Positions 33,720 through 38,222 of a stretch of 64,000 nt of DNA are shown piece after piece. Origin of the DNA: Candidatus Levyibacteriota bacterium (GTDB lineage Bacteria; Patescibacteriota; Microgenomatia; Levybacterales; GWA1-39-11); assembly GCA_050255815.1 (NCBI GenBank), contig JBLMVJ010000035.1, positions 10,727 through 74,726 of the forward strand, read 5' to 3'. Under the pieces are notes generated by a model. It did not search any database, was not told the DNA's origin, and saw nothing but the letters and a program-made list of their open reading frames with translations. The translations under genes and the position numbers were made by a program. The stretch's first letter is position 1. The number at the start of each line of letters is the position of its first letter.

Positions 33720-34268
33720 TCAAGAGCAAAACCGGTAAGATCCGAATCTACTCGAATAGTTTGGGGTAACTTCTAGGCTACCCCATTCTTCTCGAATATT
33801 TCGAATTAACATTAACAAACACTAGCGCATTCGAATTGATTCGATTTAAATTCGAACCATTCGAGAATGATTTCTTAGAATCCACGCTATTTGGATCGAC
33901 CTATTAGTACAACTTCGCTGAAACAGTTACCTGTCTTACACGTGTTGCCTATCAACCTGATGGTCTCTCAGGGGTCTAAAAGAGATCTTATCTTAGGGTG
34001 GGCTTCCCACTTAGATGCTTTCAGCGGTTATCCCATGGAAATCTAGCTACCCAGCAGTGCACTTGTAAGTACAACTGGCACACCAGGGATTTCCTCACCC
34101 CAGTCCTCTCGTACTAGGGGCGACTCCCTTCAAATCTCAAACGGTTGTCCTGGATAGAGTCCGAACTGTCTTACGACGTTCTTAACCCAGCTCGCGTACC
34201 TTTTTAACTGGCGAACAGCCAGACGCTTGGGAGCTTCTCCACCCCCGCGCTAAGATGAGCCGACATCG

Positions 34269-34699
34269 CTGTCAATCCAATCAGTAATTAAGAAAGACTT
34301 AAAAACTTAAAACTGATGGTGATACTCTTGTTACCAAGAGCCTCTGACTATACCTTCATCCGCCAACTGGCGGAGCTAGTCGTATGATACAGATTATAAA
34401 TTTCTCTTTATGAGATGAATCCATATCTCACCCTCTCACCTATGCTGGTGAGGGGTTCAGTCGATAGGGTCCAAAAGAAATTTAAAATTCAGAAGTTAAA
34501 ATTCAGAATTAAATTCTTAATTCTGAAATCTGAATTCTTAACTCTATTTGAACCTCGGTATTACCCTCTTGTGTTCAGAAAGTAGGGTTTCACCGATTTG
34601 GACTAGTTATTTAAATTATTAGTACCTTGTTTTTTGACTCAAATACTAATAAATACAGGCAAGAGTATTACTACTCAGGCGCCCCGATATTTTCATATA
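34269..34699 (-). other. Putative group I intron (~431 nt, no ORF) in 23S domain V at the GGCACCU|CGAUGUCGGCUC junction (E. coli ~2500 region)
   Basis: Exon sequences that are contiguous in E. coli are separated here. The 5' exon ends in U and the insertion ends in G. Confidence 0.6.
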
Positions 34700-35229
34700 A
34701 GGTGCCAAACCGCATCGTCGCTGTGGACGCTTGGATGCGATCAGCCTGTTATCCCCGGGGTAGCTTTTATCCGTTAAGCTACGTCCCAACCACTAAGGAA
34801 CGCAGGATCACTAACACCTGCTTTCGCACCTGCTCGACTTGTAGGTCTCGCAGTCAAGCTGGCTTGTGCGTTTGCACAATACGCTCCGATTTCCGTCCGG
34901 AGTTAGCCAACCTTTGTACGCCTCCGTTGCACTTTAGGAGGCAACCTCCCCAGTTAAACTGCCCACCAGACACTGTCTTTTAGCCGTATTTTTATGCGGC
35001 ATTAAAGTAATGCTCACTCATCTTAAAGAGAGGTATTTCATTGATGACCGAAGTCTCCCTCCTATACTAAACAGTTAAAATAAGCTTGCAAATGTCAAGC
35101 TACAGTAAAGCTCCCGGGGTCTTTTTGTCCTAGGACAACCAGGCCGCGTCTTCACAGCCATCTCAATTTCGCCGTGTAAATGTTCAAGACAGTTACTCAG
35201 TCGTTCTACCTTTCGTGCGGGTCGGAACT

Positions 35230-35548
35230 CCATTGTTTTAATGTTCCAACATGGAACCTCACAGTCGCCTGTGAGATCGGACTATATCTTTCCCTTACCA
35301 AATTGGTGAGGGATCTAGCGTCTAGTCTCTGAGGGTTTTCCGATAAATCGGAATCTTCCCTGCTGATTGGCTCCACCAAGCAGATTTTTACTCTTACGAG
35401 TACTGTTGGATACTGAGCTGTTCCAGCAAATAGCTAGATTTTACACTCATTTAGGTTAACGATTGTGTTCTTACGTGACTGTTTTGCTTGTTCCTGATGT
35501 GTATCCCGATTAGATCGGGACTCGGGCAAGTTGATTTGACCCAAACCA
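35230..35548 (-). other. Putative group I intron (~319 nt, no ORF) in 23S at GUCGGGU|AGUUCCGACC (E. coli ~1951 site)
   Basis: Exons flanking the insertion are contiguous in E. coli. The 5' exon ends in U and the insertion ends in G. Confidence 0.6.
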
Positions 35549-37359
35549 ACCCGACAAGGAACTTCGCTACCATAGAACAGTTATAGTTACTGCTGCCGTT
35601 CACCGGAGCTTTAGAAAGCGGCTCCACCTTGCGGTTTCACCACCCACTATTGACTTACCGGCACTGGGCAGGTGTCAGCCCCTATACGTTACCTTTCGGT
35701 TTTGCAGGGACCTGTGTTTTAGATAAACAGTCGCTAAGTAATCTTTTGCTTAACCTGGATGTTACTCCAGGCAGGGCATCTCCCATAGGTTACGCCCAGC
35801 TTTTGTTGCCGAGTTCCTTGAACATTTGTCTCACGGTCGCCTTAGTCTACTCGACCAATCCACCTGTGTCGGTTATGCGGTACGGCAAAATATAGCACTC
35901 CTCACGAATCTTTTCCTGAAGACTGAAACTTACGATCCTCACCCTACTTTCTTGCGATTTCAGATTTGCATTCGCCACTTAATTAAACACTTTGACGGAT
36001 TTGCCCATCAAAACTATCTTATGGCTTGGACCCTGTTTACAGGGCGATCCTTTCCACTCTTGTCCATCCTTGAGTAATAACGCACTATACTCTGTAGCAG
36101 AATATTAACTGCTTGTCCATCCGGCTACCCCGCGCTTTATGACGGGCCACCGTTAGGAGCCGACTAACGCTGCGCTGACTTACATTGCGCAGCAAACCTT
36201 GGATTTTCGGCGGACGCCGTTCTCAGGCGTCATTCGCTACTCATGCCGGCATTCTCACTTGTAAACGCTCCACCATACCTTACAGTACAGCTTCGCTGCA
36301 TTTACGACGCTCCCCTACCACTTGCTCCGATAAATCGGAGTCAAATCTCCATCGTCGGTATTAAGCTTAATCCTCGATCATTTCCGGCGCCATTCTCCAA
36401 TGTCGACTAGTGAGCTGTTACGCTTTCTTTAAAGGATGGCTGCTTCTGAGCCAACCTCCTAGCTGTCTATGGAAAATGACTTCCTTATCAACTTAGCTTA
36501 AATTTAGAGACCTTAGATGGGAGTCTGGGCTGTTTCCCTTTAGACCCACGAGCTTAGCCCCGCAAGTCTGACTCTCTATTAAGTTTTTACGGTATTCGGA
36601 GTTTGATTGATCCTGAAAAGTTGCCTCTCCAGAGACCATTCAGTGCTCTACCCCCGTAAAAACATACAAAAGGCTATACCAAAATATATTTCGGGGAGAA
36701 CCAGCTATCTCCAGGTTCGTTTAGTATGTCACCCCTTACCACAAGTCGTCTCAGATCATTGCTGCGATCACGAGTTCGGGCCTTCCTCATCCTTTCGAAC
36801 AAGTTCACCCTGCTCATGGTAAGCTCACCTGGTTTCGGGTCTTTTGCAATGCGCATTTAGGTATCCCAGTTAGAGATCGCTTTCACTATGCCTCCCCCCT
36901 CACCTTTCCAACGAAAATTCCAACCTTTGTTTTAAATCGAGCTTGTTTCGATAATATTTCAAAGTGGTAATCCTCATTAGAATGGTGAGGGGTTAGACTG
37001 CGCAATACAAAAACTCACCGGCTCATTCTTCAATAGGCACGACGTTATACCCTTGCGGGCACTTCGTCTGCTTGTTAGCTAATAGTTTCAGTAACTCTTT
37101 CATTCCCCTCCCGGGGTGCTTTTCACCTTTCCCTCGCGGTACTAGTTCACTATCGGTAGATGTTGATATTTAGCTTTGGAGCGTGGTCGCCCCGGCTTCC
37201 CACAGGGTTTAATCGTACCCCATGGTACTCAGGAACAGGCAAGAAGTGAAAATCATTTCAAATACGGGACTATCACCCTCTTTGGTCTCTTTTTCCAAAA
37301 CGTTCTTCTATGATTTCCATTTGTGACTTCTTTTGCATTTAAGCAAGCCGTCCTACAAC

Positions 37360-37660
37360 CCCCCTCACCTTTTTATCACTAACCTTTTTAAAAGTTCTTG
37401 CCAAGCTTTTGCGCGCTTCTTAAGCGCCTGCTCTCTTCTAAAAGCTAATTTATAAGAAGTATATGCTTCATAATAAATAAGCTCCCATGGCAAAAACTTT
37501 TTAGTATATATAGACTTTCCTTTATTATGGTCCGTAAATCGAGTTTTAAGATCTTTTGTTGAACCAATATAAAACTGGTCGAACTTTACACTCTTAAGAA
37601 TATACGTGTAGAACATAAGTCTATTATAGTTATTTAAGTTAGGAACAAAAAGGTGAGGGG
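37360..37660 (-). mobile_element. Hairpin-bounded intervening sequence in 23S domain I carrying a GIY-YIG nuclease ORF; ~15-bp terminal inverted repeats CCCCCTCACCTTTTT / AAAAAGGTGAGGGG
   Basis: Replaces the variable region after AGCGAACG (E. coli ~270-350). Flanking rRNA blocks identified on both sides. Confidence 0.6.
37365..37616 (-). CDS. Small GIY-YIG nuclease superfamily protein (COG2827-like, 83 aa) encoded inside the 23S rRNA gene
   Basis: 'YTYILKS...FYIGSTKDLKTRFTDHNKGK...PWELIYYEAY...RREQALKK' matches the small URI-domain endonuclease family. Same strand as the rRNA. Confidence 0.75.
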   Translation of the reverse strand: MFYTYILKSVKFDQFYIGSTKDLKTRFTDHNKGKSIYTKKFLPWELIYYEAYTSYKLAFRREQALKKRAKAWQELLKRLVIKR

Positions 37661-38222
37661 TTTGAGCTGTTCCGCGTTCGCTCGCCGCTACTGACGGAAT
37701 CTCTGTGATTTCTTTTCCTCGGACTACTTAGATGTTTCAGTTGGTCCGGTATCCCGCCGACTACTAATATATTAATCTTGCGACTAATAACTTCATAGCA
37801 GGCTCCCAGTTAAACTGGGGGGTTTCCCCATTCGGACACCACCGGATCATAATGTCTTCGGCCATTCCCCGGTGATTTTCGCGAGCCAGATGCGTCCTTC
37901 TTCGGTCAACACCTCCTAGGCATCCACTATTAGCATGAATCAAATAGCGTAGATTCTAAAAAACCAATTCATTAAAAACCATGCCTCGGCTTGAAACATG
38001 GAAAATCCGCCACCCGGCGGATTTTTTTAATCCTCCGTCCCGATTAGATCGGGACTTCGGCCTAGTTGTTTGTTTGTAATTCTTCCAATTATTAATGAGC
38101 AAAACGCTTTTTGCGTTGCCCTCGGATGTAATCCGAGGCCATATCTCTCCTGTACTCGTTTCTCGCCGGGAAGTATATTGCCCTTCCACCAGCGAGGAAC
38201 CAATACAAGAAAACTAAAAAAG

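Follow-up and report, generated by a model that had tools for sequence, protein, structure and literature searches.

We think it probable that the 64-kb stretch of DNA analysed here (the window, positions 1-64000) holds a tRNA-Ala-23S-5S unit whose 23S ribosomal RNA (rRNA) gene carries two group I introns without an open reading frame (ORF) and two hairpin insertions of a palindromic family, found in bacteria of the candidate phyla radiation (CPR), that is similar to the Ssn nuclease/SRM hairpin system. The hairpin insertions occupy the tips of helices 15 and 28 (H15 and H28). Judging by their sequences, they appear to be members of a CCCnCAC(C)...(G)GTGnGGG family that is widespread in CPR bacteria and tied to a GIY-YIG nuclease, and the arrangement resembles a CPR counterpart of Ssn and its SRM hairpins. 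The introns themselves are ordinary for CPR; the part that looks new is the kinship of the non-intron rRNA insertions with Ssn-type hairpin repeats. The elements of the unit are as follows.

33883..37949, minus strand: 23S rRNA gene, 4067 nt (Rfam RF02541 LSU_rRNA_bacteria, 2126.5 bits, full model 1-2925)
37361..37660, minus strand: hairpin-bounded insertion at the H15 tip, 300 nt with its arms CCCCUCACC...GGUGAGGGG (inverted repeat I6)
37365..37616, minus strand: single-domain GIY-YIG ORF of 83 codons (Pfam PF01541, E=1.7e-15, residues 1-71)
36896..36992, minus strand: ORF-less 97-nt hairpin in place of the H28 tip, E. coli ~609-617 (inverted repeat I3)
35231..35548, minus strand: L1951 intron, 318 nt, ORF-less (after E. 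coli 1951 by MAFFT)
34269..34699, minus strand: L2500 intron, 431 nt, ORF-less, IA-like with P7.1/P7.2 (after E. coli 2500 by MAFFT)
33600..33717, minus strand: 5S rRNA gene, downstream of the 23S gene (Rfam RF00001, 74.6 bits)
38222..38295, minus strand: tRNA-Ala(TGC) gene, upstream of the 23S gene (ARAGORN)

A reading of the window made from the sequence alone had placed an expanded 23S gene at 33870-37965 without naming a strand, and those ends are right to within ~15 nt. Two of the checks that it had proposed were made: the Infernal comparison with Rfam gives a full-model match to the large-subunit rRNA and a match of Intron_gpI to the L1951 intron above the gathering score, and alignment to a reference 23S gene, E. 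coli rrl (L001:1693-4596), fixes the insertion coordinates. The L1951 and L2500 sites were set by this MAFFT alignment. The H15 and H28 sites were taken from the Rfam alignment, since the global MAFFT alignment put the 5′ 342 nt in one end gap. Helix numbers follow the standard numbering, wherein H15 is the hairpin between H14 and H16 and H28 corresponds to E. coli ~603-624.

The sequence-only reading had counted three insertions, of ~431, ~319 and ~300 nt, and each of these is present. The first is 431 nt long and follows E. coli U2500; the second is 318 nt long (319 with the next G) and follows U1951; both are preceded by U and end in G. The third adds 281 nt at the H15 tip and contains the GIY-YIG ORF. 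A fourth, an 89-nt extra segment at H28, had been overlooked, as had the common termini of the two non-intron insertions and the small size of the GIY-YIG protein, whose 83 aa make up the domain and nothing else. The gene has 4067 nt against 2925 model positions, and the four insertions sum to ~1130 nt, so that essentially the whole excess length is explained.

As judged by sequence, the host is a CPR bacterium of the Microgenomates group. The attribution to CPR had been made before from the rRNA introns, and it stands: the IMPDH encoded in the window shows 100% identity to a protein from a metagenome-assembled genome of Candidatus Levyibacteriota.

In practice, such inserts disrupt both the assembly and the priming of CPR rRNA genes. 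The long gene could be an assembly artefact, a chimera of reads from the rRNA operons of several organisms. Metagenome rRNA assemblies are error-prone, and many related contigs do end within the 23S gene. Yet the same build, with a GIY-YIG gene in H15, recurs in no fewer than 17 independent contigs that come from different samples, full-length expanded 23S genes are present at the related loci L014, L032 and L092, and the exon sequence forms a continuous full-model Rfam match. We regard an artefact as highly improbable.

Hairpin insertions at helices 15 and 28

The H15 insertion lies at Rfam model positions ~285-289, starting ~20 nt past AGCGAACG, and at E<=1 Rfam matches neither a group I nor a group II intron to it. 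The earlier description of this segment as a non-intron intervening sequence (IVS) with a GIY-YIG gene is borne out. Its arms (37638-37660 and 37361-37383) form a basal stem of ~23 bp that is present in both the minimum free energy and the centroid structures and folds better than shuffled sequence (z = -6.6). Across nine loci, 22 pairs of this stem could be compared, and compensatory changes occur in 9-10 of them. Every one of the nine distinct H15 copies keeps the arms CCCCTCAC(C/T)/(G/A)GTGAGGGG or the compensated pair CCGAGCACC/GGTGCTCGG, despite the saturation of synonymous sites in the ORF between them. The stem is under selection.

The ORF is under selection as well. Among seven H15-embedded copies, dN/dS (the ratio of nonsynonymous to synonymous substitution rates) is 0.06-0.29, synonymous sites are near saturation, and all of the ORFs have 83 codons. 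The catalytic residues Y5, Y16, R26, H30 and E62 do not vary among 36 homologues. In the window, 6 nt separate the end of a TATAAT box from the ATG of the ORF; such a box lies 6-9 nt before the start in 8/9 H15 copies, and the TGA stop codon of the window ORF falls within the 3′ stem arm. Further H15 copies are found at L014, L092-L094, L098/L099 and L148. The nearest database proteins, 64-82% identical, come from short contigs, and in 10/10 contigs fetched for two of them the gene lies within the 23S gene at the same place and in the same orientation as its host. Insert-less 23S genes (L032 and L081) have other H15 stems.

Pfam matches the 83-aa protein to GIY-YIG and T5orf172 only, which removes the four-helix-bundle IVS protein 23S_rRNA_IVP (PF05635) as a candidate. 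A sequence search of the Protein Data Bank returns weak matches to UPF0213 structures (E=0.003), and NCBIfam gives a sub-threshold match to an intron endonuclease and nothing else. A GIY-YIG homing endonuclease of the I-TevI type was also considered and set aside: the protein is the catalytic domain alone, and its host insertion does not match a self-splicing intron.

A broader form of this idea is classical homing, wherein the H15 IVS would carry a site-specific GIY-YIG homing endonuclease that makes a double-strand cut in insert-less H15 alleles, the insert would be copied in, and the likeness of the H28 stem would be incidental. In favour of homing, endonucleases of this kind are known in the GIY-YIG family (PMC1995217), the ORF is uninterrupted and evolves under purifying selection, and the H15 site recurs in nine distinct elements with identical flanks. 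The protein, however, has no DNA-binding domain, whereas the intron-encoded enzymes I-TevI, I-TevII and I-BmoI have 245-266 aa in Table 1 of the same source (PMC1995217). Moreover, close relatives of the gene occupy many non-homologous sites (H25, E. coli 1430-1592 and 2629-2637, 16S genes, tRNA 5′ ends and pilin genes), and ORF-less units with the same termini are found at yet other sites. These features argue against site-specific homing, which we consider unlikely.

The H28 insertion consists of 89 extra nt at Rfam model position ~655. The unit is a single hairpin with a stem of ~32 bp and a predicted energy of -53.5 kcal/mol (z = -7.8). At the same place, the related locus L007 has a short native hairpin, GUCUGC-UUU-GCAGAC. 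We considered that the H28 unit might be a simple deletion derivative of the H15 unit, and this is ruled out by their dissimilar interiors.

What the two insertions have in common is their ends. Both close with the stem CCCCTCACC...GGTGAGGGG, and both have the termini CCCCUCACC...GGUGAGGGG. There are five copies of CCCCTCACC in the 64 kb, against 0.53 expected, and 5/5 lie inside the 23S gene; CCCnCAC..GTGnGGG pairs number three in the window, against 0.16 expected. The fifth copy of CCCCTCACC is the P7.1 hairpin of the L2500 intron, and a version with one mismatch is the P8 hairpin of the L1951 intron. The window also has a free-standing hairpin with a CGTC..TCCC..GGGA..CTGA build, which is the build of the Neisseria NTS CGTCATTCCCGCG..CGCGGGAATCYRG (PMC11893778).

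34431..34455, minus strand: P7.1 hairpin of the L2500 intron, CCCCUCACC-AGCAU-AGGUGAGAGGG, the third hairpin with the shared motif
35291..35313, minus strand: P8 hairpin of the L1951 intron, UCCCUCACC-AAUU-UGGUAAGGGA, the fourth hairpin with the motif, with one mismatch (P8 by Rfam alignment)
12332..12362, plus strand: free-standing intergenic hairpin, CGTC-TCCCTCACC-ATTAT-GGTGAGGGA-CTGA

A hammerhead ribozyme was considered at CTGATGAG, beside the last of these; Rfam finds none there, and gives just a weak sub-threshold rmf match.

Related units in other genomes

The wider distribution of the family was examined in 170 homologue loci, of which 80 came from GTDB genomes, 80 from metagenomes and 10 from contigs that encode two close database homologues. 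Complementary CCCnCAC(C)...(G)GTGnGGG arms, often as ATCCC...GGGAT, enclose the ORF at most of these loci, and a stricter search for the core finds arms around the ORF in 87/170 loci. In 62/170 loci (~36%) the ORF lies in, just upstream of or next to an rRNA or tRNA gene, and all of these are co-oriented with it. Inside 23S genes there are 24 ORFs, at H15, H25, E. coli 1430-1592 and 2629-2637; three to five are inside 16S genes, ~9 are just upstream of 16S genes, and 23 lie 8-58 nt upstream of a tRNA gene.

Units without an ORF are also common. In 1.09 Mb of loci, 149 pairs with the C arm first occur within 450 nt, vs 29 in the G-first control. About 50 pairs have no ORF; their size mode is 97-107 nt, and their rRNA sites in relatives are H10, H25, H45 and H63. 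These ORF-less units fold as single long hairpins, with z from -4 to -12. Their interiors are similar only within one genome, as at L088 (of the neighbour set of L092), where three copies are 91-97% identical; between units from different genomes, no similarity of the interiors was found.

Two further observations bear on the proposed mobility of the units. The 23S genes of L092 and L094 are 92.9% identical, and the H45 tip reads TCCC-GATTTTATC-GGGA in L094 and TCCC-[74 nt]-GGGA in L092. This difference is a clean gain or loss within a native look-alike hairpin. At tRNA 5′ ends, the flanks of units with or without an ORF carry the first 7-10 nt of the tRNA as direct repeats.

Examples of such tRNA 5′-end units are L049 4969-5285, L143 3137-3456 and L150 449-606, where the first ~10 nt of the tRNA (e.g. 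GGGCCCGTAG) stand on either side of the unit and the opening bases of the tRNA coincide with the G-run of the 3′ arm. Other ORFs extend beyond their unit. At L142 6001-7134 and L059 1137-1958 the GIY-YIG ORF crosses the 3′ arm (..KKGEG) without a change of frame and continues as a type IV pilin-like protein beginning GFTLIE. The nuclease domain is then in the position of a prepilin leader, and could be freed by prepilin peptidase. At ~15 other loci the GIY-YIG ORFs are lengthened to 240-390 codons. L059 additionally has tandem mini-hairpins beside the pilin-like gene (1073-1470 and 2111-2265), CCCCTCACCTTTTTTCC-ATTA-GGAAA.., with a 39-nt period and GGGTTTA between them. The 23S gene of L032 has a GIY-YIG unit at H25 along with an insertion at L2593.

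The stem that covaries as an RNA helix should is also what would be expected of host-owned expansion segments. On this account the H15 and H28 hairpins would be stable structures, retained or processed, their common stem would be a convergently selected RNA signal such as a processing or protein-binding site, the GIY-YIG gene would be a domesticated passenger, and nothing would be mobile now. H15, H25, H28, H45 and H63 are variable helices that also bear eukaryotic expansion segments. The absence of visible target duplications at the rRNA sites and the seemingly vertical inheritance of the H15 element fit the same account. Against it stand the multi-copy units outside rRNA that are bounded by the same termini, such as those at L088, the direct repeats at tRNA 5′-end units and the gain/loss polymorphism between 93%-identical 23S genes. 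The motif, furthermore, recurs in P7.1 and P8 of the introns and in the free-standing hairpin at 12332-12362. We hold it improbable that the insertions are expansion segments of this kind.

Membership of the H15 and H28 insertions in an Ssn/SRM-like palindromic family remains the reading that we prefer, and several observations weigh against it or against parts of it. The H15 and H28 units have just 9-14 nt in common, and their interiors are unrelated. The rRNA sites show no visible target duplication. Inheritance of the H15 copy looks vertical: because it stands at the same site in nine lineages and its synonymous sites are saturated, it may no longer be an active element but a resident that has become fixed and domesticated. 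The ~36% of loci in or near rRNA and tRNA genes may be inflated, as the 170 loci were picked by similarity to an rRNA-embedded protein. In the Neisseria arrangement NTS-ssnA-NTS, whole small hairpins flank the gene, whereas in the window and at most loci the gene lies inside one split hairpin; L078, L104 and L143 do have whole hairpins on each side of the gene. Finally, the intron at L2500 falls short of the Rfam gathering score of 50, with 24.4 bits (E=3.5e-4).

How the insertions might be tolerated and spread can be outlined as follows. The H15 and H28 units would protrude from surface helices, and their 23-32-bp stems would let RNase III excise them from the RNA, or they would stay in place and be harmless. 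Other bacterial IVS have long perfect stems of this type, and RNase III cuts them there. The template for translation of the nuclease could be the excised piece, or a leaderless transcript begun at the conserved TATAAT. We infer further that the family is mobile: the nuclease would nick hairpin-forming single-stranded DNA (ssDNA), and repair would copy the element into YCCC-loop-GGGR look-alike hairpins of stable-RNA genes. The evidence for this hypothetical nick-and-repair copying consists of the distribution of the units, the one polymorphism and the direct repeats.

A bolder proposal, which we offer tentatively and which may well prove wrong, is that the non-intron rRNA insertions of CPR, both the rare GIY-YIG-bearing ones and many of the common ~100-nt hairpins at H10, H15, H25, H28, H45 and H63, are one mobile palindromic family. 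It would be driven by an Ssn-type ssDNA nuclease and would colonize look-alike YCCC-loop-GGGR hairpins where structured RNAs are transcribed at high levels (in rRNA helices, peripheral hairpins of introns, tRNA 5′ ends and even prepilin leaders), its own stem making it removable or harmless and the host promoter expressing it. If this is true, Ssn and SRM gain a selfish-element biology and the origin of rRNA intervening sequences is explained. The link with Ssn joins two literatures, that on the non-intron insertions of CPR rRNA and that on the recently described Ssn nuclease/hairpin-repeat systems. Should it hold, rRNA intervening sequences would get a concrete origin and a testable mechanism of mobility, the source of the short hairpins that are inserted in rRNA, tRNA and intron loops would become clear, and a natural set of nuclease/hairpin pairs would be at hand for ssDNA tools.

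The two introns and other features of the window

Both intron insertions had been taken for group I introns without ORFs, and that assignment is supported at either site. The L1951 intron matches Rfam Intron_gpI (RF00028) over the full model (1-253, at 35258-35526) with 80.5 bits, against a gathering score of 50. As read from the sequence, P1 is UCGGGU/GCCCGA, with U1951 paired to G, and P10 is GAGUU/AACUU, directly 5′ of P1 on a contiguous guide sequence. Position 35231 is the terminal G (omegaG), by homology with the same-site intron of L032, which ends in ..ACAACAUG before AAGUUCC. With the terminal G at this position, the exon restarts with G1952 in the mature rRNA. Intron-less junctions are seen at L014, which reads GGGUAAGUUCC across the L1951 junction. 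The intron folds far better than shuffled sequence (z = -5.0).

For the L2500 intron, whose own score was given above, the support comes from a homologue and from pairing. The same-site intron of L092, 288 nt long, scores 51 bits and passes the gathering score. In the window intron, P1 is GGCaCCU/GGGcGCC, including a U-G pair, the terminal G is at 34269, and P10 is CGAUGU/AUAUCG, so that P10 and P1 share a contiguous guide, AUAUCG followed by GGGGCGCC. The J8/7-P7 sequence is GAAGGUAUAGUC. Between the window intron and that of L092, P2, P3, P8 and P10 covary with pairing kept, in a comparison of two sequences by eye; for example, P3 is CUAGU/ACUAG in the window vs CUAGC/GCUAG in L092. The fold is again better than that of shuffled sequence (z = -7.3). 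Two hairpins between P7 and P3′ suggest that the intron is IA-like. It is longer than its homologue owing to an 89-nt hairpin in P6 and to differing P7.1 and P7.2 elements; the P7.1 of L092 is unrelated to the CCCCUCACC hairpin of the window, and the P6 hairpin, made of GAATTCAGA-like repeats, is not present in L092.

34466..34554, minus strand: AT-rich, near-perfect 89-nt hairpin extending P6 of the L2500 intron (inverted repeat I2)

A search for homing-endonuclease remnants finds no Pfam domain in any ORF of the L1951 or L2500 intron, in keeping with their earlier description as ORF-less. Both introns are predicted to self-splice from the pre-rRNA, which would restore helix 71 and the peptidyl-transferase loop.

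Two short duplications involve the L1951 intron. A 24-nt stretch with the hairpin UCCCGAUCUAAUCGGGA occurs twice in the window with two mismatches, in the tRNA-Ala/23S leader (38038-38061) and in the guide-P2 region of the intron (35504-35527); no further copies are present in the window (0.09 expected) or in 171 loci. The tip of helix 45 of the 23S gene (36326-36342) has the hairpin UCCGAUUUAUCGGA, which agrees in 16/17 nt with the P6 hairpin of the intron (35339-35355). These duplications suggest that hairpins have been exchanged between introns and rRNA or the leader. At L032 (6630-7672), the L1951 site is part of a tandem: a 20-nt exon lies between an L1931 intron, whose ORF is LAGLIDADG-like, and an L1951 intron that has no ORF.

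No 16S gene is found by Rfam in the whole 64-kb window. The 16S gene is therefore either unlinked to the tRNA-Ala-23S-5S unit or more than 25 kb off on either side. Genes for thioredoxin and thioredoxin reductase lie upstream, in synteny with related contigs, and the 23S-5S spacer (33742-33867) is rich in direct and inverted repeats centred on TTCGAA. Elsewhere, the window encodes a three-domain ATP-dependent DNA ligase (Pfam DNA_ligase_A_N/M/C) at 48627-50399.

32196-33350: IMPDH gene, beside the rRNA operon

Comparison with known systems

Insertion sequences in CPR rRNA genes were reportedly described by Brown in 2015. According to a later survey, insertions of at least 100 bp are present in 82% of CPR 23S genes, with a mean total of 1327 bp, and include 222 ORF-less group I introns, with 1952 as a frequent site (Tsurumaki 2024, PMC11270868). 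The same survey lists 15 GIY-YIG ORFs in 23S genes, all in insertions that do not match an intron model and placed by its authors outside homing, and 469 more 23S insertions with neither an annotated ORF nor an intron match (PMC11270868). On these counts, the combination of insertions in the window is a known CPR pattern, contrary to the sequence-only reading, which had called it unusual. The likeness extends to the host group, to the siting of ORF-less group I introns, 1951/1952 among their positions, in the 3′ half of the 23S gene, to the restriction of GIY-YIG ORFs to non-intron insertions and to the placement of short insertions at variable helices. The difference lies in how the non-intron insertions are seen: in that survey the GIY-YIG-bearing and short insertions stand uncharacterized and unrelated to one another, whereas here they have common hairpin termini and look like one family. 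As first described, the gene is thus routine for CPR, and it shows that the 23S genes of the group can be annotated helix by helix.

The L1951 site is also used outside CPR. Coxiella burnetii has an intron there (PMC1995217, Table 1), of the same group I class as that of the window. The Coxiella intron has 720 nt in that table and encodes a LAGLIDADG enzyme, whereas the window intron has 318 nt and no ORF.

Intervening sequences of the 23S gene are removed by RNase III in other bacteria, among them Salmonella, Leptospira and Coxiella, and an ORF within an IVS has precedent in Leptospira and Coxiella. The H15 and H28 insertions share with these the form of extra stem-loops at the tips of variable helices (H25 and H45 in relatives) with a long basal duplex. 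They differ in that the ORF of the window encodes a GIY-YIG protein, not the four-helix protein 23S_rRNA_IVP, and in that the window sites are H15 and H28.

As short multi-copy palindromes with one protein-coding, "autonomous" form, conserved termini and genome-specific interiors, the units are also reminiscent of REP/BIME-RAYT systems and of miniature inverted-repeat transposable elements (MITEs). The CPR units differ in that they are associated with a GIY-YIG nuclease instead of a Y1 (HUH) transposase and lie inside structured-RNA genes. The literature searched, whose coverage is incomplete, yielded no earlier description that links GIY-YIG proteins with inverted repeats, MITEs or Patescibacteria.

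The closest comparison is with Ssn. Ssn proteins are described as single-domain GIY-YIG proteins of ~94 aa (cd10448) that cut ssDNA beside a cognate NTS/SRM hairpin with the core ATTCCC..GGGAAT and CGTC upstream, and ssn genes are flanked by hairpin repeats "like an IS" (insertion sequence) (Chenal 2025, PMC11893778). The main text of that work does not mention rRNA, tRNA or Patescibacteria/CPR (PMC11893778). As a proxy for SsnA we used an SRM-flanked homologue of Sinorhizobium meliloti, a GIY-YIG protein of 94 aa whose gene is flanked by CGTCATCCTCGGG-CTTGA-CCCGAGGATCC hairpins with a CGTCAT.. flank. Comparison of the CPR profile with this protein by hhalign gives a probability of 97.4% (E=1e-11). 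The published SRM pattern, which is degenerate, was also mapped by hand on the CPR hairpins and did not fit, the CPR stems being longer.

The two systems have in common a single-domain GIY-YIG protein of ~80-95 aa with intact catalytic residues and YCCC...GGGR hairpin repeats in many copies, and the free-standing hairpin of the window at 12332-12362 has the CGTC 5′ flank as well. They differ in their surroundings: the Neisseria repeats are intergenic, whereas the CPR units have the same orientation as their host gene and lie in rRNA helices, in hairpins of introns, at tRNA 5′ ends and in pilin leaders.

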